Shown here: positions 2,941 to 55,975 of the stretch, piece by piece
How the letters are laid out: every line of letters begins with the position of its first letter
Position numbering within the stretch: the first letter of the stretch is position 1
Origin: Eledone cirrhosa
Taxonomy: Eukaryota
NCBI GenBank assembly: GCA_964016885.1
Contig: OZ024741.1
Coordinates: 107,012,001-107,076,000 of the forward strand
Direction: 5' to 3'
DNA length: 64,000 nt
Notes under the pieces: generated by a model
The model's input: only the letters and a program-made list of their open reading frames with translations
Told to the model about the DNA's origin: nothing
Database searches by the model: none
Position numbers and translations under genes: made by a program

Positions 2941-3371
2941 TAGGCTGAGATAATTATCCTAATTAGAAATAAATGTTTTATGATTGAAATGATTTTGGTA
3001 AATTCTGGAAATTTTTCACAATAAAACATCGTTCGCTGATTCTCTTGTCTTACACGAATTTTTTCTATTTATCATGTTACACATAAGCAAATACATTCAC
3101 TCACATACTTACTCACATATGCACATTCACATATACATACAAACACACACGCATACATACCCTCACACATATATATGCTCTCATATATATACATATACAT
3201 ACACTCATACAAATTATTTCATAAACATACTTTCACATACACCTCACATATGCATGCTCATATATACATGTACACTCACATGTATATATATTCACATAAA
3301 CACACCCTCATATACAGTCTAATATACATACTCACACATATACATACACTCGCATATACATACTCTCATAT

Positions 3372-4224
3372 TATGCTCTCACATATACAAGCTGACGCAC
3401 ACAGACATTGATGCATTCGTCTATAAATATGTTTTCTTATACAATATAGGCGGCGAATTGGCTGAGTCGTTAAAACTTTAGATGGAATGTTTTGTGGGGT
3501 TTGTTCCGATTCTGATCTGAGTTCAAATTTTGCGAATGTCTACTTTGATTTTGAGGGCGATAAAAAAGTACCAGTCGAGTACTGGGTCAATTCTTCCTTC
3601 ATATCTCCTAATGTTTTCCCTGTCACTATATCTCCTTCTCTGGAAGAAATCAGCTGCGTTCAGATCTGGAGAAGTGATGGGCTCTGCCATGTTTAAAGAC
3701 TGCTTAAGAAACACAGTATGTCATTGTAGTGCTCCTATGAATCCAATATCGAAAGAGCGCCGGACAAAGTACTTTGTGGTATGTTACGACTGTACTTTGT
3801 GGTATGTTACGTCGGACAAAGTACTTTGTTCGACGCTCTTTCGATATTGGATTCATAGGAGCACTACAATGATATACGGTGTTTCTTAAGCAGTCTTTAA
3901 ACATGGCAGAGCCCATCACTTCTCCAGATCTGAACGCAGCTGATTTCTTCCAGAGAAGGAGATATAGTGACAGGGAAAACATGAGAAGGAGATATGAAGG
4001 AAGAATTGACCCAGTACTCGACTGGTACTTTTTTATCGCCCTCAAAATCAAAGTAGACATTCGCAAAATTTGAACTCAGATCAGAATCGGAACAAACCCC
4101 ACAAAACATTCCATCTAAAGTTTTAACGACTCAGCCAATTCGCCGCCTATATTGTATAAGAAAACATATTTATAGACGAATGCATCAATGTCTGTGTGCG
4201 TCAGCTTGTATATGTGAGAGCATA
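3372..4224. repeat. ~850-bp inverted duplication with ~400-bp arms, containing an old tRNA-derived SINE
   Basis: The right arm is the reverse complement of the left apart from a few substitutions and a 3-nt indel; mirror ORFs appear in the track; a related SINE lies at ~57880-58160. Confidence 0.95.
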
Positions 4225-4239
4225 TGTATAAGAGTATGT

Positions 4240-13836: not shown

Positions 13837-14428
13837 TGGCTGCCAACTCGTTTTCGAGTGCGGCCACTACTTTATATCCATGTAGGAGAACCCCTACCGA
13901 TGCGCTGAAGGAGTGTGACTTTTTAGTCCAGCCAGCGACTTGAAAACTCTGGTACAAACGCTACACTTGTCACAATTATTGACACATAGTGGTGGGCCCA
14001 TGGTACCATGTGATGACAAGTGCAGAGAGATCTCCAGATATAAAGCAATGCCTGCGCCGTGAAGCTTTTATAGTGAGCAAAGGTACTGCACAAAGCCAGT
14101 CCCACTCTCTTAACCAAGATGATATTTACCAAAAAGAAGAACAAGTCAACATCATTGGATACCACCAGGGTTGCAGGTGTTATATCAGAGTTTTCCTTCT
14201 AGAATTCTGCCTTGACAAAGGCTAAGGGGTCATCTCTCCCGGTGATTTTGGATGGCCATTGACTCTTAAGAGCTCCTTTGCCCTTTGACAGGCTTTGTTT
14301 TTAGTCTTGCAGGATGTCCAAAGTCACCCTCCTCACCAAGAAACCTTGGTGGGGTTGCCAGCTTAGTCGCCAACGACCCGACCATGAGACAGGTTGTACT
14401 GGGATACATGTTACCAGTAGCACCAGCT
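13834..14428 (-). mobile_element. Microsatellite-flanked interspersed repeat, family A (RTE 5'-UTR-like)
   Basis: Close copy at 44818-45302; related copies at 14697-15230, 18965-21790 (interrupted), 30425-30762 and 50472-50812. Confidence 0.7.
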
Positions 14429-14446
14429 ATATATATATATATATAT

Positions 14447-14540
<94 letters not shown>

Positions 14541-14696
14541 TCACATATACACGCACACACATATATATATATATGCATATATACATGCATACACATACGC
14601 ACACACACACACATATGTGTATATAAATATATATGTGTGTGTATGTGTATGTGTGTATGTATGCATGTATGTATGTTCGTATATATTTATATATAT

Positions 14697-15230
14697 ATGT
14701 CAGGTCGTTCTTCAGCGCTTCTAGTAACATGTAACCCAGTACAACCTATGCATGGTCAGGTCATCGGCGACTAAACCGGCAACCCCACCAAGCTTACCAA
14801 GCCAGCTTGATGGGGAGGAGGATTTTGGACACCCTGCGGATGAAAAACAAAATCTGTCAAAGGGCGGACGAACTCAAGAGAGTCAACGGCCATGTAATAA
14901 ATTTTGTGGAGCGAAAACATTGAGACATCTTTCTACTAGAAGGTCACTCTGGTATAAAACCTGCGGCTTTGTTTGCATCCAATGATGTAGACCAGTTCTT
15001 TTTGAGTGAATGTTCATAGAGTGGATTGGACCCGTGCAAAGCCTTTCTTCATTTAAAAAAAGCTTCAAGAACGGGCATCACTTGATGTGTGATATTTTTT
15101 AGTATGCATGGCATTGCTAGCCATAGGCGGGGCCCTAGCTTGACTAGAAAGCCACGTCCGTGATGCTAATGCTTAAGTATCAAGCGATAGCATTACTTGA
15201 TATCGAGTTGCAGTCATCATGTAAGTATGT
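14697..15230 (+). mobile_element. Family A repeat, opposite orientation to 13834-14428
   Basis: Shared taacatgtaacccagtacaacc...ggcgactaa...aaagggc core. Confidence 0.65.
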
Positions 15231-15755
15231 ACGTATACACACAAGCATGAACATAGGTTCACACAAATGCATCCAAATGTAACGACCATGATAGAACCTT
15301 CCGTCAAGAAAGATGTATAAGCTGTTAGTAAAAAAAACCCAGAGAACCACTCAATGAATTAGCGTGCTGTGTGGCTGATTAGTCTTATACTTATGTGGAA
15401 GGAATATGACACAGTGTTTTTATATGGCAATACTTTGATATACTAATGCAGTCCAGCCGACGAGCTACTATAATGCTATCTCTACTCAACATTACTATAA
15501 AGCTGGTTAAGTGATTCTTGTCCAAGATGAAGCCTGTGCCTCATTATTTGTAAGTGAACCACATCAAAAGACTTCAAAAATAAGTTTCATGTGATATAAT
15601 TTTCATAGTCGTATTCCATGATCGGATATTTTACGTTTATATTGATTTCGCTTGTAGTGTATGTATATATATATATATATATACATTATGAAGAGAGAAG
15701 AAACATTTAGATATAATTAGTAATAAAATGTATCATACCCAAACTGCTCCTAGAT

Positions 15756-15845
15756 TCCTCGACTACGTAGTTTCGTGGTATAAACAAAAACAATACATCA
15801 TAAAGATATAGAGTCCTTGCGAGGTCTGCCGACTTATCAAGAGGA
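15756..15845 (-). ncRNA. Type-I hammerhead ribozyme, U3-A8 variant, long loop II
   Basis: ucCUC-UUGAUAA-gu...ac-GAAAC-UACGUA-GUC-GAGga. Confidence 0.65.
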
Positions 15846-16346
15846 TACCTCATTTTACTAGTCTCAAGAACGCGTCTACACGACGTGAGAAAGAATCCCA
15901 AAAGGCGGAGGGGGAGACAGTCACGCGATATAACGGTCGAGAAACAGAGCTAAGCCTCTTATAACCCCGAAGAAAATACCACGGAGGCGGAGGGGGTATT
16001 TATATCGAAGCCGTAGAAGAGGTGGTGAAGGAGGAGAGAAGTATGAGTAATGGAAGCTTTCCAGCAGTCCCCACACTTCAAAGATTGCTCGACCAGAGGG
16101 AGTTATTAACAATATATTTAGAAACACACAGATACATGCGGACACACACATATACATGAATGCATCCGCACCCAACCGTGAGTTAAGGGTGCCAACTTCA
16201 CCGATGTTGCTCAATGAATGACTGGGACAGACCAATCCGGTTGAACTAGACTGAACCAGTATCAGAGTTAAAAATACATTATGAAGAGAAGAAACATTTA
16301 GATATAATTAGTAATAAAATGTATCATACCCAAACTGCTCCTAGAT

Positions 16347-16436
16347 TCCTCGACTACGTAGTTTCGTGGCATAAACAAAAACAATACATCATAAAGATAT
16401 AGAGTCCTTGCGAGGTCTGCCGACTTATCAAGAGGA
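16347..16436 (-). ncRNA. Type-I hammerhead ribozyme, second tandem copy
   Basis: Same motif as 15756-15845. Confidence 0.65.
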
Positions 16437-16610
16437 TACCTCATTTTACTAGTCTCAAGAACGCGTCTACAATGTATTTTTAACTCTGATACTGGTTCAG
16501 TCTAGTTCAACCGGATTGGTCTGTCCCAGTCATTCATTGAGCAACATCGGTGAAATTGGCACCCTTAACTCACGGTTGGGTGCGGATGCATTCATGTATC
16601 TGTGTGTTTC

Positions 16611-16693
<83 letters not shown>

Positions 16694-16828
16694 GTATATG
16701 TATATATATGTGTCTGTGTGTGTAGGTGTGTGTGTGTGTGTCCTCTTCGTATTGACTTTGTTATAGTTACTTCATCTTACGAAAACGAAGTATACACACA
16801 CATCTTTATATATATTTAGAGAGAGAAA

Positions 16829-25209: not shown

Positions 25210-25210
25210 T

Positions 25211-25968
25211 ACCACAATGTTCAATTTGTCAAGCTATTTAAACGTATGTTATTACTCTAAGGACCTACCCTTATTGAGTGCTTTGCTAACTCATTCATAT
25301 TGTAGGTCGAATTTGCTTGCCCACAGCCAAAGATTCGATTTTACTAAGCCTCCACTTATATTATTTTCTCCTAGATTTAATAATTAACTAATTAATTTAA
25401 TTAGACAATTCTGTTGATTGGTTAATTATTTGTGTTTGTTTAATAACATCTGGTTGAGAGCTTTATTCTGAATGTTAGCGGAAATTATAATATTTCCTTT
25501 GTCTAACACTTTGAATCGACCCGCCAAAAACCGGAGTTATTTCCCTTATTAGAAATAACACGTGACAACTAAATGTTCGATTCGCTTGCTGTTAGCAGCA
25601 CCATTTATTGTTCGCCCCGTTCTTTGGTAGATCGAAATCCCTGTTGATGAAATGAGTCCTCTGTTCGATCATGAATACCACGAGCTTGCCAGTTACGTAA
25701 GTCTGATATTTGATTTCGGATTCATAGAAACACTTTAAACGTATAACCTTTAATTTGTCCAGGTGTATCTTTTTTAACCTGTTAGTTCTTTCGTTACTTT
25801 GGTATTGTGTGTTAGATTTTGCTTACCACAATGTTCAATTTGTCAAGCTATTTAAACGTACATTGTTACTCTAAGGACCTGCCCTTATCGAGTGCTTTGC
25901 TAACTCATTCATATTGTAGGTCGAATTTGCTTGCCCACAGCCAAAGATTCGATTTTACTAAGCCTCCA

Positions 25969-25974
<6 letters not shown>
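25211..25974. mobile_element. Non-coding element with ~150-bp terminal direct repeats (period 614), microsatellite-flanked
   Basis: accacaatgttcaatttg...aagcctccacttata at 25211 and 25825; HHR-like ctaagga-cctac...gtagg-tcgaa. Confidence 0.7.
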
Positions 25975-26041
<67 letters not shown>

Positions 26042-26755: not shown

Positions 26756-28455
26756 CGAGGTACACTTAAGATGCTTTGAGACTTTTATCGGAGAGATATT
26801 TATTTAACTCAGATCAACACAAATATTTAATCTCCTTCAAAGTAGGATCCTCCAACTTCAATGAATTTGCAGTGCTTCAGCCACTTCTGGAAGGTACCCT
26901 TGTAGACCTCCAAAGCTTGACACAGTCTTCTTCATCTTCTCCGCATCCTCAAAGCGGATGCCCATGAGCTTCTCCTTCAGATTCTGGAACATCCAGATGT
27001 CACATGGGGCTAAGCCTGAACTGTAGGTGGGATGAGGGACAGTGTCCATCCCTATATCGGCCATGTAGTTGGTTACCAGGATGGATGTGTAGTAGGGTTT
27101 ATTGTGTTGGTGCAAGTGCCACTGACCAGACTTGAAGAGTTCTGGTCTCTTGCGATGAAATCTCTTTCTGAACTGCCTCGAAACCACTACATAGTACTTT
27201 TTGTTGACTGTCTGGCCGTGGGGGATCCAGTGGATGTATATGACGCCCTTGCTGTCGAAGAATGGGATCACAGAGAGCTTTCCAGTGAACCTGCTTTTCC
27301 TGGCCTTCTTGGGTCATGAAGAGTTAGTATGTTTCCACTGAGCAGTCTGTCTATTGGTCTCTGGATCATGACGGTAGACCCAGCTCTCGTCACAGTTTAG
27401 CAGAGACTCAAGGACATTTGATTTCGAATTGATCCACTCGACCAGATCCCTGCAGTTATCAACGCTCCTCTACCTTTGATCTTCATTGAGCACCTCGAGA
27501 ACAAAGTTTGCGCATTTTCCGATCGTCATGAATGACTCTGTACGTAGTGCCCTCAGCTCCTTCAAATTGTTTAGCACTCGTCAGAAGAGATGCATGACGC
27601 GCCTCGTTCAGAAATTTAAGAATTCTTTCTACAAACTTTGGCGAGATGAAGTTTTCTCCGAATTGAGAGATCACAGCTCCGATACTACAAGCATGTGGTT
27701 AGAATATCTCGGGAAAGATTTGCTCGGCAAATTTTACAGGCAAAAACCAACCGGCAGAAGCCCCGGGGATAGACCCGAGCAAGATGGTTGACTAAAATCC
27801 ATGATCTTGGCTGGTTTCGCTTGGAGATCTAGCCGGATCAGTTGGAAGTGTGTTTGAGGACTCTCCCTCCACGACTGTCTCAGGAATAAGTGGACGAAGA
27901 AGAAGAATAAAAAGAAAAAGAAAAAGAAAAAGAAAAAGAATAAGAAAAAGAAAAAGAAAAAGAAAAGGAAAAAGAAAAAGAAAAAGAAAAAGAAAAAGAA
28001 AAAGAAAAAAGAAAAAGATCATGAAGATCTTTGGCGTCCTGATGTCCCTCTCCCTGTCACACCTCTCCTCGCCCCTCACCTGTTCCCTGCCCTCCTGGAA
28101 CCTCTTGTGCCATTGGAAAACAGTTACCTGACTCATGAAAGTTAGTCCGTAAGCAGTTTTGATTGTTTCATAGGTTTTCTGTAGCATTTTTGCCGAGCTT
28201 GACACAAAACTATTAAATATCGATTCTCCAAGTTCTCCTCGCGTCCCAACAGCATTGTGGAACCAGTCAGTTGTGAGAAGATATGTATGTTGGGTAGTGT
28301 TTAAAGTGCTGTAGCGTCTCGAGCCTTCAGACTGGAAAAAAGAATTGGCATGTTAGCTTAATATAAGCATATTAAGGATATATTAAAGAGACAGTTACGT
28401 AGGTAAAGTAAAAGTGCATGAAAAGTAAGTCTCAGATCCTCTTGAGAGTTCCTCG
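26756..28455 (-). mobile_element. Mariner transposon with decayed transposase
   Basis: TA-flanked TIRs cgagg...tgagactt; peptides VFQWHKRFQEGRE, FFDSKGVIYIHWIP, PHPTYSSGLAPCD. Confidence 0.92.
27685..28020 (+). mobile_element. 5'-truncated RTE 3' end nested in the mariner element
   Basis: Homologous to 12450-12712; tail (GAA)n expanded to (GAAAAA)n. Confidence 0.8.
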
Positions 28456-28820: not shown

Positions 28821-28851
28821 ATGTACATATGTATATGTATATATATATAAG

Positions 28852-29157
28852 TTGTAATAAAATGAAAACGAAATTTCATTTCTCACTCTTAGTACGGCAC
28901 TTACTTAAATGTAAGTATGTATGTGTCAGTGTTGAACAAAAAGGTGACGTGGTTGCCTTAACACCGTACGGCATAAATTCAGGCTGTTCAGTTTGTTTAC
29001 AAACGAACAAAGCGGGCGTTATAATAAGCGTCCGCTAAACTGATACGTGCATATATGTATGTGTACCTGTATGTATATGTATATATATATATATATATGC
29101 ATGCTATTGTACGTCTGTATACATATATGTATGTACGTATACATACATACTTACATA
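28852..29157. mobile_element. Truncated and inverted copy of the 52292-53140 family
   Basis: Shares aaacgaaatttcatttctcactcttagtacggc and tgtcagtgttgaacaaaa. Confidence 0.75.
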
Positions 29158-29336
29158 TATATATATATATATATATATACATTCACTACCAGAAAGGCAC
29201 CCAGCAGTCAACGAGCTGCTAAACGAGCTGCTACCAAGATGAAAACTACTGTGAAATCCCACAATGAATTTTATACTTGAATTTTCAAATCTCAAATTTT
29301 AACTCTTCTTATTATTAATTTTTCTTAACATTAATC

Positions 29337-34766: not shown

Positions 34767-34824
34767 CCGTCTGAAGAGCTCGGGCTATCATAACTGATAA
34801 TCCTTAGCGAAATATGTATAACGG
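34767..34824 (+). ncRNA. Type-I hammerhead with intact core
   Basis: CCGU-CUGAAGA-GCU...AGC-GAAA-uaugua-UA-ACGG. Confidence 0.8.
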
Positions 34825-36559: not shown

Positions 36560-38560
36560 TACCCTACGAATTTTACGTAGCAATGCCGGACTTATTCTCC
36601 GGTCTCCTGGAAGCGGTCTACTGCAACTGGCAACAGAACGGGAGAATTCCCAGTTCTGTGACAGGGGGCGTAGTCACACTAGTCAGGAAGGACGAGAATA
36701 AGGGGGATGACATAGGCAACTGCGACCCATAACTCTGCTAAACACAGAGTTACAGATTTTGGCCAAGGTGTTGGCAAAGAGGCTGGCGCTTGTCGTCGAG
36801 AAGCTGGTAGGAGAAGCGCAGACATGCGCAATCCCGACCAGGTCCATACACGACAACCTCCACCTCATGCGATACATCATAGAGAGGGTAGGGTGTAAAC
36901 CCGGCTTCGGTGGGGCCCTGATCAACTTGGATCAGTCTAAGGCTTTCGATAGGGACGACTATCGTTACCTGGATGCAGTGCTCGAGGCGGCAGGCTTCGG
37001 ACCCGTGTTCAGGGGCTGGATTGCTGCAATGCATAACAGCAACATCTGCTCAAGGGTTAAGGTGAATGACTACCTCTCGGAGCCGTTCCATATCGCGCGA
37101 TCCATTCGACAGGGATGCCCTCTCTCCTCCCTTCTGTACGTATTGACTCTCGAGCCACTACTGCGGAAGTTGGAGCTATTGCAGGGCATCCCTCTGGAAC
37201 CGGGACTGCGGAAAGCGGCATCGGCTTACGCCGACGACGTGACAGTAATGGTGTCGAGCGCCTCGCAAATCGAAGAAGTCGGCACCTTACTGAAGGAATA
37301 CGAAAGGTTCACAGAAGCGAAGCTGAACCAGGACAAGTCCATCGGTTTGCAACTCGGATCGTGGAGAGGCAAACCGATGCCTTCCGATGGCGCCGTCGGA
37401 CGCTGGACGGAAGGATCAGTAAAGTTGCTCGGGGTCTGGTTTGGTCCCGACCTCCAGGTGGAGAAGAACCTGTAACGAGGTGTCGGCCAAGGTGTTTGCA
37501 CTCACCCAGAAGTGGGCCGAGTGCAAACTATCCTTGAAAGGTCGAGCGGAGGTGGCTAACACTTTTATAGCGTCCACCATCTACTACCGCTTGACCATCG
37601 TGCCTTGTCCAGCCAAAACGCTCGCCAAAATGGAGCGGGCACTCCTCCAATTCATTTGGAAGAGGCGGGCTCCTTTGGTGAGAAGATCCATCTGCTGCCA
37701 ACGCCCTTCCAACGGAGGGCTGGAGATGCCGTGGCTGACGATGCGCAAACACGTGCTCAAGCTGCGGTATCTCTACGTATTCCTCACCGGACAACCGGTG
37801 TGGGCCCCGTTCGTGAGGCGAGCCTTCCCACGACTCGTCTCGCTGACCGAGCTGCAGTCCTGGGTCAAGAAAATACCGAGGAAAATGGGCGACTGGCACA
37901 TCGAATGTGCTCAGGCGCTCACAGCCCTCTGGCAGGCGAACCCGGCGATCAGTGGAGACTCCACTTCGTCATTCTATAGAGGGTTGATCCGCAGTAAGTG
38001 CGACGACGGGCTCGGTGAAACTCTGGGCGTAGAGGAAGACGAACTGGCCAGTCTGTTCGGTAGGACCTTCCGCCCGGGACCGATGGACAACTTCCAAAAG
38101 TCACTGGCCTGGGAGTGCTACCGAGGAGCTCTACCAGTTCGAGATAAGCTCTACAGACATGGGCGCCCGAGCAGGGACCCTGCAAAAAAGATCTGTCCGA
38201 GGTGCGTACGAGATGAAGAAACCGTCGCGCACGCATTCATAAACTGCACGGGCGTCACCGACCTGTGGGGCTATGTGGAACTACTATTGTCGCGGGTGGG
38301 ACCAATCCAGTTGACCACCGAGTCCATTGTCATGATCAAACCGCCACCCTCCTTCAAAAACGAAGGAGGAGCAGTTTTCCTTTGTGTGATAGCTATGGCG
38401 AAAGAGGTTTATGGTGGACAAGGTTGAAAGGGCTATTGGGGAAAATCGATTAATTTTTAAATTGCATTTGTGATAATATTTTACACGTTTTTATTGTATG
38501 TAAACTTCCCCCTTTGTATTTGTCCCCTTCTTTTGTGCCCCGGTGGCTAATAAAGAAACA
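36560..38560 (+). mobile_element. Tx1/L1-like LINE, 5'-truncated, ORF2 RT plus zinc finger, frameshifted
   Basis: LDQSKAFDR, SIRQGCPLS, YADD, CPRC...ETVAHAFINC; 3' aataaa followed by (TA)n. Confidence 0.93.
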
Positions 38561-38711: not shown

Positions 38712-38991
38712 GTAATAATAATAAAATTGAAGACTAAAATCCAAAGAGGGCTCGATAAGGAAAATATATATCAAATATATAAGAACATATATATATATAT
38801 ATATATTATTAAAAATACTATTTATAGTTATGTATATATTATACTATAAACAACTATAAACATGGAAGGTCAGTAATTTATTACTACCTTATTACCAGTA
38901 AGATAAATAGCTCAATGTAAGAAGGTCAGTTGTTTTACAGAGCAGTAATATTGAATTCACAAGTATCAAAGTTATGTTTAAAACATTTATT

Positions 38992-39038
38992 CGCTGACAA
39001 TTGTTTCTTCCAAACCTAGGCTTGGAGTCTTCGGAGCA
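38992..39038 (-). ncRNA. Minimal hammerhead in the pLTR (U4-to-C variant)
   Basis: GCU-CCGAAGA-cUCCAAGC-cuag-GUUUGGAa-GAAAC-AAUU-GUC-AGC. Confidence 0.7.
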
Positions 39039-40352
39039 TTTTTTATGTTTGTACATATAATTGACCTCCTACTCAACCGAATAAACATACAGATACATAT
39101 ATATATATATATTGATGTTGTGTACAGCAGTTTCATGTTTACAGTGTGGGATTGATGTGACATATATTATATTATACTATATTTGTACAATAATTCAAAT
39201 TAAGATTAAAATCAAAATTAAATTTAAAAACAAGATTAAAAGCATAGGTTGTAATACATGCGACAGATAATACAGATAATACGAGAGAATAGTCCAATAA
39301 TTAAATTAAAGAGATAGTATATGCGTTAGTCATATATAAAGGGATGGAACAAGCAAATGTATCATGTATATATGAGTACTGTATGGCAAGGTATTACATG
39401 AGATACAAGCACTTTATGTGAATATGTTAGTGTTTTATCGTGGTTGCAATGCGAAGATATTTTCTGTATAGTTCAAATTTGTATGCGTGCAGAAAAAGAA
39501 AGTTACAGTTTTCACATCCATCACATAAGTTACGATATATTTGTATTCAATGTTTGTTATAGTAATGGATTGTAATGTATTGTAACTTGGTGTTATTTAA
39601 TCCATATTTATAGATTAGGGTTTTTCAGCTGCGAGAATTTACGGCGGTTTAATATCCGGAAGCGGGTATGTAATTAAGGGGAGTTAATGCGTAAGGGGAA
39701 GTAACTAGCTCATTATAATAATTAAATTCATTGCTCTCATAGACATTATATGGTGCCTCAATTGAGTCCCTTATATAAAAAGTTATATATTTATATTTAA
39801 TTTTAAATACAGTCTACTCTCTCATAATATATTAAAGGTGTCAATAGAAAGTTGTCTACCCAATATTATATAGTGCCATAATTGAATTTCCCATACAAAG
39901 TGCTATATATTTATATCAAATTAACCTTAAATACAGTCTACTCTCAAAACATATTAAAGGTTCAATTATATTTTTGTCTACTCAACATTTGGTAAGCTAT
40001 GGAATAACGTACAGCCGTTTGCATGATAAATTAGATACATCTCTTGAGTAAATAAATTCATTCTTTATATACAATGTTATTAATCTATACATTTAATTAT
40101 AAATGTATATATAATTCATTATTCCATATTACATATAAGTTAGACAAATCCCTTGTGTTAATAAATTAATCCTATATATACAATGTTATTAATCTATACA
40201 TTTAATTATAAATGTATATATAATTCATTGTTGCATTTAATATTTAAAGTTTATATAAACTGTATTATATTTCAATCACTATATAATTATATGTGATCGA
40301 AAGTAATTATATTAAAAGGTGGTGATTATAAGGATATTTCTAGAGTATAAAG

Positions 40353-41228
40353 TTATAGATAGAATGATTTGTGTAGAGGAAAGGGTGGATCAGAGAGAGT
40401 GATGTAGTGGTGGAAAGCAAGACCTAGATGTGAAGTGCTAATGGTGGTGATGAGTTCAAATCTGACATTGTTATATACTAGGTTTAAAGTTTTGGAAAGA
40501 GTGTCGGAAGCGGTGTTGGCATGATGCAAACACTTCCGATTATTTTTATTAAGGAGGTTAAGATTCGAAAATATTATAGTATGGGTCTCCGGTAGACAGA
40601 GGTTACAAAATTTATTAGGTGGTTTATACGATGCAGCCCTACCTACCACTTCCCATTGAAGTGTATATGATCTATTCCTAGTTTTCAGATAGTGTATGTA
40701 GCTTGATAGTGAAGTGGAGTTGGCTAGATTGTGTTTTTTGAAAGAATGGAGGTGTGAGTTGTATCTCGTCTTGAAGCAGGTCGAAGTAGAGCCTATATAG
40801 GTTTCAGAAGAGTTGTTAGTGTTGACCGTGCATGAGTAAATGATGTCCTTGATTAAGCAGTTGTTACCTAAAGGACAGGTTCTATTTGATCTACAGTTAC
40901 ATTTATTTTGGATGTTATCTTGTCGGTTATTATGTTGTGTAGAAGTCTGGTTGCTAGGTATTGCATTAGGGCTATGATGGTTGTCGTTCCTAATGTTATT
41001 GATTTCATTAGTGTTATTACTATTATTACTATTGTTGTTAGGGTTTGTAGTTATTATGTTGTTTTGAAAGTTTACCCCCTGCTGTGTTTTAGTTTGTTGA
41101 AAATAAGTATTAATCTTTCTTTTATTACTACTAGCTATATGGTATGCTATGTTAGGTGTGGTAGAGTAGGAGATTTTAATGGTGTTTTTATTTATAAGAC
41201 TATGGTACTTGTGGCCAGATGGGAAGTT
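40353..41228 (-). pseudogene. 291-codon start-less open frame: Penelope linker, zinc knuckle and GIY-YIG endonuclease
   Basis: NKNTIKISYS..PN, Asn-rich linker, CNCRSNRTCPLGNNC, DIIYSCTV..TYIGST..FKTRYNSH, CNLC..E, KCLH; FFNP motif upstream beyond frameshifts. Confidence 0.9.
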
Positions 41229-41846
41229 TTATCCAGGATTGAGAAGAAAGCCTTAGTAAGTTGGTAGAGACGTTTAGATTGTAAGGGGATTGAAAAATAT
41301 ATTAGTTCTACTATTTTTGTTTTTTATATCTATTGAGGTATTTCTGTTTATAGTATGTTGGTGTCTACTCTGGTGCGAGTTAAGTTTGATGCTACCCTTC
41401 GTATTAGTGTAAGTGTGGTTATTATTCTTATTACTATTTTTCCTCATGATTTTATAGGTAGGAACTCAATCCCATTATTATGGCCTGATTTAGCTAATGC
41501 CTGATTATAGTATATACATGATACATTTGCTTGTTCCATACCTTTATATATGACTAACGCATATACTATCTCTTTAATTTAATTATTAGACTATTCTCTC
41601 GTATTATCTGTATTATCTGTCGCATGTATTCCAACCTATGCTTTTAATCTTGTTTTTAAATTTAATTTTGATTTTAATCTTAATTTGAATTATTGTATAA
41701 ATATAGTATAATATAATATATGTCGCATCAATTCCACACTGTAAACATGAAACTGTTGTACACAACATCAATATATATATATATATATGTATCTGTATGT
41801 TTATTCGGTTGAGTAGGAGGTCAATTATATGTACAAACATAAAAAA

Positions 41847-41893
41847 TGCTCCGAAGACTCCAAGCCTAGGTTTGGAAGAAACAATTGTCAGCG
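41847..41893 (+). ncRNA. Minimal hammerhead in the inverted pLTR
   Basis: Mirror image of 38992-39038. Confidence 0.7.
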
Positions 41894-41946
41894 AATAAAT
41901 GTTTTAGACATAACTTTGATTCTTGTGAATTCAATATATATATATT

Positions 41947-52121: not shown

Positions 52122-52503
52122 CCCCCTCTCTCTCTCCACTCTTTCTTTCCCTTTCTCTCTCTATGTATATATATGTATATATACATACATATATATATAT
52201 ACATATAAACATACACACACACATACATACATGCATACATACATACAGACACACACACAAGCGCGTATATACATAAATATATATATATATATAAATATAA
52301 GTATGTACACGTACATACATATATGTATACAGACGTACAGTAGTATGTATATATATACATACATGCACACACATATATATATGTACGTATGGGTTTACCG
52401 AACATTTATTATAATGTTCGGCTTGTTTGTAACAAACAGCCCGAATTAAGCCGTACAGTGTTCAGCAACCATCGTTGCCCTTTTGTTCAACACTGACACA
52501 GGA

Positions 52504-52546
52504 ACGATGAACTAGTTTCAAGCTTATTAGCTATCGTCAGCATCGT
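52504..52546 (-). ncRNA. Minimal type-I hammerhead
   Basis: ACGAUG-CUGACGA-uAGCU-aaua-AGCUu-GAAAC-UA-GUU-CAUCGU. Confidence 0.85.
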
Positions 52547-52932
52547 ATACCTTCCTGTCAGATGATTGAACGTTTGAAAGTATATACTTTCCTTAAACAT
52601 CTTACCGGCTGAGCAGCCTAATTTGCATATCGAGTGAGTTAGTCGGCCGGGCGCACCGAAAACGATAAATAAAAAAAATGAAACGAAATTTCATTTCACA
52701 CTCTTAGTACGGCTGTTAATTAAATATAAGTATGTACACGTACATACATATATGTATACAGACGTACAGTAGTATGTATATATATACATACATGCACACA
52801 TATATATATATGCACGTATGGGTTTACCGAACATTTATTATAATATTCGGTTTGTTTGTAAACAAACAACCCGAATTAAGCCGTACAGTGTTCAGCAATC
52901 ATCGTGCCCTTTTATTCAACACTGACAAAGGA

Positions 52933-52975
52933 ATGATGAACTAGTTTCAAGCTTGTTAGCTCTCGTCAGCATCGT
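52933..52975 (-). ncRNA. Minimal type-I hammerhead, tandem copy
   Basis: acGAUG-CUGACGA-gAGCU-aaca-AGCUu-GAAAC-UA-GUU-CAUCau. Confidence 0.85.
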
Positions 52976-53175
52976 ATACCTTCCTGACATATATATATAT
53001 ATGTGTGTGCATGTATATATATATATACATACTACTGTACGTCTGTATACATATATGTATGTACGTGTACATACTTATATTTAAGTAACAGCCGTACTAA
53101 GAGTGAGAAATGAAATTTCGTTTCATTTTTTCCATTTATATAAATATATATATATATAGTAATCAGGGGGAGGTA

Positions 53176-53281: not shown

Positions 53282-53549
53282 CAGGAACTGATTTTACAGA
53301 GCGGTCGCCGGCCCAGCAGAAATTGAAAATTAGAATTGGTGCTCTGAAATAGCGATATATATATGAATGTATATATAGTGTAGTTTGCCATACACTGTAT
53401 GCTTAATTAAAACCAGTAATACTTAATTAAATACAGTGTATTGCAAACTACACTATATATACATTCATATATATATCGCTATTTCAGAGCACCAATTCTA
53501 ATTTTCAATTCCTGCTGGGCCGGGGACCGCTCAGTAAAATCAGCTCCTG
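53282..53549. repeat. ~270-bp near-perfect palindrome
   Basis: ~120-bp arms with few mismatches. Confidence 0.92.
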
Positions 53550-54343: not shown

Positions 54344-55975
54344 AATGATTTCTTTATTGGCCACAAGGGCTGACATTACAGACGGCACAGGACGGTACAG
54401 GACGCTATGATGTGGGTTTTGTGCGTGTAAATATTTTTATTATTTATATAAGAAAAGAAAAAAAGACATAGAAACAAATATATATATATAAACAATAAAA
54501 ATGAAAATTGAAACAATGAAAAATTCCCCAGTAGGGGGGAAACCTCCGAGGGTTACTCGTGGCGAAAACCACACAAAAGACCACGGCCACCCTGACCACC
54601 AGGGCAAGTGCCCTCTCTCAATTTTTCCATTTCTCAAACTACAGACGTATGTTCAGAGCGGTCCCATTCACTCGGACCATTCTCGCTACATTCACCCACC
54701 TTTCAACAAACTTGCTAGTAGGCAGCACTTGCCTCTCCACCCCGATTTTCCACTTCAACTGAAACTTGAAAAAGTTAATTAGGGATTCGCCGAAGAGGGA
54801 AGTATCTGTCTTTAACCCTTTTAACCTTGTCCACCACACAATCTCTTTCGCCATGGCCACCAGGCAGATGAAAACCGCCTGCCCTTCCTCCTCGAAGGAA
54901 GACGGCGAGACCATCTGCACAATGGACTCAGTCGATAACCGGATCAGTCCTACACGCGACAGCAACTGTTCGACATAGCTCCACAAGTCAGCAATGCTCG
55001 GGCACTGAACGAGTGCGTGCACGACGGTTTCGTCGCTCTGCGCGCATCTCGGACAGGCTCGGCTGACGGCACTTCCGTGCATGCAGAGCTTATCTCGAAC
55101 CGGCAACGCTCCCCGGTAGCATTGCCAGGCCAGGGATTTTTGGAAGTTATCCATAGTCCCTGGGATGAAAGTTCTCCGGAAGAGAGCAAACAGCTGATCT
55201 TCTTCGTCGCCCAGGATCTCTCCGAGAACGTCGTCGCTCTTCCCCTCCACTGGTCCTCTATAGAACGCCGAGGTGGATGTTCCACCGATACTGGTGCCCA
55301 GCTGGCAGAGGGCAGTGAGCGCCTGGAGACATTCCAGTTTCCAAGCGCTATCCCTCGGTCTTTTTCTGACGCAGGACTGCAGCTCCGTCAAGGAGATGAG
55401 CTGTGGCAAAACGTTCCTGGCGAACGGCGACGACACCTGTTCACCGTCAAGGAAGCACCAGAGATGTCGCAGTTTCAGCGCATGTTTGCGCATCATCAGC
55501 CATGGCATGCCCAGTCCTCCGCGCAACGGGTGTTGACAGCATATGGATCGTCTGACGATGGGAGCGCGTCCCTTCCACAAAAAGCAGAAGAGGAAGCGCT
55601 CCATTTTGGTGAGAGTTGGGCCGGGGCAAGGGACGACGGTGAGGCGGTAGCAGATGACGGATGCGATGTACGCATTCGCCACCTCCGCCCGGCCTTTCAG
55701 GGATAGCTTCCTCTCGGCCCATTTCTGGGTGAGGGAGGCCACCTTGCTCGTCACCTCGTTCCAGTTTTTCTCCATCTGGAGGTCCGGTCCGAACCAGACC
55801 CCGAGCAGTTTAACCGGCCCGCCCGTCCAACGCCCACGACGCTGTCGGACGGCATGGACTTACCTCTCCAGGTGCCGAGCTGCAATCCCACCGACTTTTC
55901 CTGGTTTATCTTTGCTCCTGTCACCGCTTCGTATTCCTTGAGAGCGCTGCCGAGCATCTGGACGTGTCTGGTGCT
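54335..55975 (-). mobile_element. Tx1/L1-like LINE, 5'-truncated; 378-aa C-terminal ORF2 segment still open (54639-55775)
   Basis: Homologous to 37300-38560; CPRC..ETVVHALVQC; aataaa and (ATT)n tail running into (TA)n. Confidence 0.93.

Follow-up and report, generated by a model that had tools for sequence, protein, structure and literature searches.

The window analyzed here, a stretch of 64,000 nucleotides from Eledone cirrhosa, carries at 15681-16617 an element whose mapped repeats bear out the layout proposed in the first-pass annotation, namely A-B-C-A-inverted C within (TA)n. The left (TA)n (15664-15683) is part of the target microsatellite and is joined, at 15681-15690 of the minus strand, to an end site designated S1, the putative start of a first cDNA arm of 791 nt. 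This arm consists of the first copy of A (15681-15880), the B spacer (15881-16111), the 162-nt tail C (16112-16273), and the second copy of A (16274-16471), all on the minus strand; the tail extends from a second end site, S2 (16112), to an internal S1 (16274), and the second A is 5'-truncated at the inversion junction. The two arms meet head to head at position 16471 with a 1-nt microhomology, and the second arm, the inverted C (16471-16617, plus strand), runs from S2 at about 16617 to S1 and is flanked by the right (TA)n microsatellite (16614-16709). The two copies of A are one substitution and one 2-nt indel apart, and the inverted repeat of C (16112-16280) at 16471-16617 differs by one substitution and a 20-nt deletion. 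Hereafter, q denotes the window position minus 15680.

The B spacer contains two conserved CCCCCTCCGCC boxes (15904-15914 and 15986-15996) and a TATA-like stretch (15997-16006), which may have a promoter role. A tRNA head for the element was ruled out, since there is no tRNA gene in the window. No empty allele of the locus (15664-16709) was seen in the sequencing runs compared, the alignments of which skip TA repeats.

Each copy of A contains a type I hammerhead motif on the minus strand with the core UUGAUAA, as noted previously, and the window motif scan places the cores at 15840 and 16431. The first motif (15756-15851, core 15840-15834 with U3.A8) has a predicted cut at 15761/15760, a predicted loop II/stem I pseudoknot, and a C.A mismatch in stem II at 15779, while in the second (16347-16442, predicted cut at 16352/16351) stem II is intact. 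The predicted cuts after C17, at 15761 and 16352, are spaced by 591 nt over two consecutive units, such that the proposed 591-nt monomer holds at this locus, but most of the close relatives have 593 nt. The core residues are U3 U4 G5 A6 U7 A8 A9 and G12 A13 A14, with GUC as the site. Stem I has 5 bp, and stem III has 3 bp inside a palindrome that had been given as UACGUA and is refined here to the 10-nt ACUACGUAGU (duplex −12.9 kcal/mol). The loop II insert, previously estimated at about 55 nt, is present and amounts to 59 nt between A9 and G12; it is composed of a 6-bp stem II with one bulged C and a 46-nt loop, the latter comprising a 37-nt hairpin and the 5-nt strand ACCUC, which can pair with GAGGU upstream of stem I.

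The hammerhead was aligned over 12 variants, i.e., the two window copies plus representatives from 10 of the 13 clusters. Neither the core nor any of the five pseudoknot pairs varies, and the stems are conserved among the copies, with 97% of the cells paired in register vs 34-53% when the alignment is slid; the loop II hairpin varies by G-U/A-U swaps. No compensatory change is seen in any of the 33 stem pairs of these variants, and the covariation does not exceed that of shuffles. With the pseudoknot left out, the unconstrained minimum is at −28.7 kcal/mol vs −25.7 kcal/mol for the active fold of the right copy and −19.0 kcal/mol for that of the left copy, which places the active fold 3 and about 10 kcal/mol above the minimum, respectively, the latter copy being the one with the stem II mismatch. 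We count the missing compensatory change and the non-minimal active fold against our preferred explanation.

The scan of the window against Rfam (E ≤ 1) gave 239 matches, and among the 150 of these that were listed there are only microsatellite-driven ones and none to a hammerhead family. A pattern search for short-loop hammerheads returned only three deletion derivatives. Self-cleavage at the locus is a prediction from the motif. The U3-A8 covariation and the stem I/II pseudoknots are described as natural variants of active hammerheads (PMC3088659), and a short palindromic helix III is reported to suit cleavage as a dimer (PMC4209133).

The RNA structure of the minus strand is also constrained in the tail, which forms two conserved hairpin domains. 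The fold of C has a z score of −4.36 on the minus strand and −0.66 on the plus strand, i.e., it is confined to the ribozyme strand. In an alignment of 12 variants (11 of the 15 clusters and the window), 97.7% of the cells pair and 4 of the 48 pairs change on both sides. The covariation score is reached by none of 500 shuffles, a control that relatedness can inflate. The tail is likely the protein-binding element.

The family comprises thousands of copies, dispersed over many chromosomes. Exact matches to the ribozyme core number 7,147 genome-wide and none for the reversed-pattern control, so the motif does not occur by chance and the element is clearly multi-copy, while the 1,911 exact TA-S1 junctions in the genome set a floor on the number of insertions. 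The element had been described as probably young, and this is correct for the 40 best of 2,230 candidates, which are 97-100% identical; the lineage, however, is also old, with subfamilies at 77-91% (the subfamilies span 73-100% identity overall) and a sister retrozyme family (L128:834-1135, L164-L193) at 72-80%. The sister family has a period of about 580-590 nt and 1,820 candidates, and both it and the divergent subfamilies have the same two ends, are non-coding, and lack an open reading frame of a Penelope-like element (PLE). In the element itself, the longest stop-free frame is of 128 aa and is interrupted by a 2-nt indel among the copies. There is no reverse transcriptase (RT) or GIY-YIG frame, and tblastn searches with three PLE proteins gave no match in the window.

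Copies are often inserted in the terminal TA run of another repeat or PLE-like element, which results in nested clusters (flanks of L005, L012, L016, L027, L130, and L137). Contigs of the element are found in runs from other organisms. We did not infer transfer between organisms from them, as the window's other high-copy repeats accompany these contigs and contamination or relatives therefore suffice. Two of the runs, X8 and X11, were compared with 15640-16660 of the window. In X8, from another organism, the window's short interspersed repeat is very deep and the element is represented by one contig with a depth of 36, a contrast that would fit either a lineage-specific burst or contamination. 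Run X11 has a shorter variant of the element without 15967-16110.

A total of 88 insertions were mapped in 86 regions; four duplicates and two insertions truncated at the edge of their locus were removed, and those retained comprise 31 with one arm and 51 with two. The two-arm insertions are all head to head, and the direct-plus-inverted architecture proposed earlier is present at the locus but is not fixed across the family, the inverted arm being absent from 31 of the 82 insertions. The element meets (TA)n at either of two fixed outer sites, S1 or S2, located 162 nt apart. TA-rich sequence lies on both sides of 42 of the 45 two-arm insertions and of 23 of the 31 one-arm insertions. For 3 of the 85 insertions tested, all of them copies other than the present one, a paralogous empty site could be identified: the flanking repeat also occurs elsewhere in uninterrupted form, with a TA run in it.

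The one-arm copies start at S1 (q1) in 22 cases and at S2 (q432) in 9. In all 45 two-arm insertions having both ends at a site, one end is S1 and the other S2, and neither S1/S1 nor S2/S2 is found; the chance of this is 0.5^45 = 3e-14. The same pairing is seen in 22/22 loci drawn by the ribozyme pattern alone and, from the junction lists of C1:1-68.5 Mb, in 22/22 facing pairs (10 of which are already among the mapped insertions), with no S1/S1 pair among 100 S1 junctions. In 6 of the 51 two-arm insertions at least one outer end lies at neither site, which we count against the preferred explanation.

The inner ends, on the other hand, are variable: they scatter over the period, and the overlaps at the junctions are mostly 0-7 nt. 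The arms measure from 46 to 2,907 nt, the longest corresponding to about 4.9 periods, and in 17 of the 45 two-arm insertions neither arm is contained in the other. No third arm and no inherited inversion junction occurs in the 88 insertions. At multiply covered sites, 187 insertion-private alleles were identified, of which 26 are present in all units (20 of them across both arms), 156 in one unit, and 5 in some units. The divergence is about 1.0% within insertions vs 3.1% between them; that to the nearest other insertion is 0.8%, so the value within is not lower than this. The two arms of an insertion come from one source, as follows from the 20 private alleles that cross both arms and from the 1.0% vs 3.1% divergence. 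Nine insertions are internally polymorphic at the single position q352, which is also counted against the preferred explanation. Apparent shared polymorphisms at q120/122 and q557-560 were rejected as artifacts of gap placement.

We consider it quite probable that this non-coding, high-copy element with a period of about 590 nt is a non-autonomous Penelope-like retroelement, i.e., an animal retrozyme, and that its head-to-head copies are made of two cDNAs on opposite (TA)n strands, one from S1 and one from S2. In this mechanism, the minus strand would be transcribed, and a PLE protein with reverse transcriptase and GIY-YIG domains would act in trans, probably as a dimer, and bind the folded tail. 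The protein would then nick both (TA)n strands, with one subunit starting at each site, S1 and S2, and joining of the two truncated cDNAs at their growing ends would give the head-to-head insertion. One-arm copies would arise when only one cDNA is kept.

As to the template, a cut linear monomer is excluded by the observation that 41 of the 45 S1 arms and 39 of the 45 S2 arms extend beyond the predicted cut site, with 1 of 121 inner ends located there (1.4 expected), that is, without a pile-up. We lean slightly toward a circular monomer that is made by the hammerhead and copied in a rolling-circle fashion, which is modestly favored because there is no third arm among the insertions. We further put forward, as a tentative proposal whose chances we place somewhat below even, that PLE insertion may be an obligately asymmetric double priming, in which a dimer on the folded 162-nt tail uses S1 and S2 on opposite strands and both cDNAs run round the ribozyme-made circle. 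If this is true, pseudo-LTRs, the inverted copy, and the one-sided tail would all be explained in a single step, and the 590-nt RNA would constitute a minimal substrate for proving such priming. It counts against the preferred explanation that, for the PLE PAc in vitro, the start sites are reported to be alike between the strands and cleavage not to be needed (PMC11167929).

It is also conceivable, although on the doubtful side, that the two-site priming by the PLE machinery takes place on linear RNA that is read through from long source arrays and left uncut, with a hammerhead that is regulatory, protein-assisted, or dispensable. PAc is described as inserting unprocessed RNA and as having a ribozyme that requires protein (PMC11167929), only one of nine Xenopus retrozyme dimers is reported as cleaved in vitro (10.64898/2026.07.22.740005), and the active fold of the present hammerhead is not the energy minimum. 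Homogeneous source arrays would, in addition, also yield the all-or-one pattern of private alleles, and the 5 of 187 alleles found in some units fit such arrays. However, this scenario has to contend with 88 insertions lacking an inherited inversion junction or a third arm, with arms of up to about 4.9 periods, with private alleles that occur in all units (26) or in one (156), and with the invariance of the hammerhead core over the 12 aligned variants.

The remaining alternatives do without a second priming event or without retrotransposition. The inverted arm could stem from a single cDNA that folds back or primes itself, or from a palindrome formed later. Such a route has a precedent in the self-priming proposed for the palindromic junctions of Penelope (PMC3846280); 28 of the 45 insertions are geometrically compatible with it, and 2 of the 45 junctions are perfectly symmetric. 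The junction phase differences, however, are close to uniform (11/45 within 60 nt, with 9.2 expected), and fold-back leaves the constant stop of the second arm at the other site and at TA unaccounted for. As the sole mechanism it is excluded by the 17 non-nested cases, and we regard this route as very unlikely. Less probable still, to the point of being nearly negligible, is a TA-targeting miniature inverted-repeat DNA transposon, or a satellite unit, with a chance hammerhead-like motif. The TA flanks, the inverted ends, the small size, and the lack of a protein would agree with it, but the two ends are different sites rather than identical terminal repeats, the inversion is missing from 31 of 82 insertions, the inner ends vary continuously in the manner of 5' truncation, the structure is confined to one strand and shows G-U pairs as well as compensatory changes, and the copies are spread over many chromosomes.

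The search for the partner of the element drew on 10,595 GIY-YIG candidates in the genome and on 56,115 candidate relatives of a 291-aa frame in the window (40353-41228, minus strand). This frame has an endonuclease-like domain of the form CNCR...CPL / IIY...YIG, missed by Pfam, and lies in a PLE placed between inverted 427-nt repeats (38948-41937, 97% identical). Profile scans of 150 PLE endonuclease loci, a small fraction of these hits, revealed no termini shared with the element, only one nested copy (L086) and weak AC-repeat matches, which counts against the preferred explanation, and no partner was found in 60 larger regions or by two protein searches. An 18-nt match in the 3' UTR of L108 (E 0.5) was dropped as chance.

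The genome is rich in PLEs, with 11 endonuclease groups from one scan and two more from others. Open frames of 938, 844, and 1,096 aa contain RT and, by motif or Pfam, GIY-YIG and have a CxxxxCxxC linker, of the type described for Neptune and Nematis (PMC8557442), so the ORF-bearing PLEs appear to be Neptune-like. Several Neptune-like PLE families whose open frames are long lie in the loci L091-L110 (e.g., L091:4309-7122 and L093:1775-5062). In at least three or four of them the hammerhead core is U3.A8, and two ends, separated by about 35-68 nt, are joined to TA. Several ORF-bearing families are flanked by TA, have two ends, and carry the core UUGAAAA; of six inverted copies inspected, five (L096, L100, L102, L106, and L109) bear one of each end, in favor of the preferred explanation. 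The sixth, L108, has the same end on both sides and is counted against the preferred explanation. The partner most likely belongs to the Neptune-like families of this genome, an assignment by shared features and not by homology.

Another family with a hammerhead, with a 429-nt unit, is found in the window at 52292-53139, with a second, partial copy at 28828-29180. As stated in the first-pass annotation, it has no evident sequence in common with the present element, the only match being a low-complexity AC-rich 27-mer (85%, E 7e-4). It has 523 exact core matches genome-wide, with copies 84-95% identical to the window copy, a C3-G8 core (CUGACGA), and CUAG as loop III. Its ends fall at no fewer than three positions, near q1, q82, and q374-381, and their pairing is noisier, with two apparent same-end pairs in noisy alignments. 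The suggestion of a common mobilization mechanism stands insofar as the two families likely belong to the same class of mechanism, by analogy with the published PLE architecture, but use of the very same partner protein is in our view unlikely. The two families share TA flanks, the direct-plus-inverted layout, and a stretch rich in AC/GU close to an end; against a single protein are the differences in core pair, loop III, ends, and tail length, the lack of homology beyond low complexity, and the many PLE groups in the genome.

Other repeats of the window include two more motifs that resemble type I hammerheads, have C3-G8 cores, and belong to other families (34771-34820, plus strand; 60498-60428, minus strand) and a partial tandem with a 614-nt period between microsatellites (25210-25975, 152-nt direct repeat, 97%), in which motif scans found no hammerhead. 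Long palindromic insertions lie at 3358-4239 (95% self-complementary over 892 nt), 14134-15003, and 53282-53549, LINE-type RT/zf-RVT fragments at 36711-38427 and 54639-55953, and a mariner-type transposase fragment at 26858-27313.

Retrozymes, the PLE architecture, TA targeting, and U3-A8 cores are already known components; new here are the long structured 162-nt tail and the strict one-of-each rule for the ends. In L1 twin priming, each target strand supplies a primer, and the resulting inverted and direct arms are joined by microhomology, with the second priming at variable internal sites and the arms sequential. In the present insertions, by contrast, both starts are fixed and the sequences of the arms overlap over hundreds of bases.

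Animal non-LTR retrozymes are described as non-coding tandems of units with a type I hammerhead each (Cervera and de la Pena 2020, PMC7229834), and they have been argued to be non-autonomous PLEs (Li, Clavereau, and Pollet 2026, bioRxiv 10.64898/2026.07.22.740005). The present element resembles them in these respects and in its thousands of copies, but its monomer is about 590 nt, compared to 170-400 nt in the 2020 paper and 51-972 nt in the 2026 preprint, and instead of long arrays it forms dispersed head-to-head insertions of mostly 1-3 periods. The word "inverted" is absent from the text of the 2020 paper, and the main text of the 2026 preprint contains no analysis of insertion ends. The insertion anatomy ties animal retrozymes to the PLE machinery independently of the phylogenetic argument of the preprint. 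As for the ribozyme, a short palindromic helix III, G10.1-C11.1, U3-A8, and a pseudoknot are shared with the PLE-type and pseudoknotted hammerheads described (PMC4209133, PMC3088659), the difference being the combination of a 3-bp helix III, a 46-nt loop II with a 37-nt hairpin, and a predicted 5-bp pseudoknot.

The published hallmarks of PLEs are a partial tandem, an inverted truncated copy, a tail of 30-40 nt that is often one-sided, and a microsatellite bias (PMC8557442, PMC3846280; further context in PMC7761336, PMC6155905, and PMC13282606), the tail being located on one inverted pLTR. The origin of the tandem and inverted insertions and of the tail is named there as an open problem (PMC8557442), and the sole in vitro study of a PLE leaves the later steps unvalidated (PMC11167929). 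In the literature searched, which lies mostly outside subscription papers, no count of the pairing of PLE end sites was found. The thousands of young copies provide large-sample constraints, i.e., two fixed starts, one of each, no fold-back arms, and read-through of the ribozyme site.

Compared to the EN+ PLEs (Penelope/Poseidon, Neptune, Nematis, and Naiad), the element has the partial tandem, the inverted 5'-truncated copy, the tail at one end, the microsatellite bias, and the hammerhead of the terminal repeats in common, but it has no ORF, its tail is 162 nt instead of the published 30-40 nt, and the tail, described as optional or often one-sided in those elements, here follows the one-of-each rule in 45/45 insertions. 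A further parallel is with PAc (Poseidon of Anolis, PMC11167929), for which the tail is reported to be bounded by two internal RT starts that adjoin a stem-loop located downstream of the hammerhead, the target is AT-rich, both strands are cut and extended, and a dimer is predicted. In PAc, however, the sites are adjacent and show no strand preference in vitro, whereas in the present element S1 and S2 lie 162 nt apart, and its inverted copies use them in a strictly complementary way.
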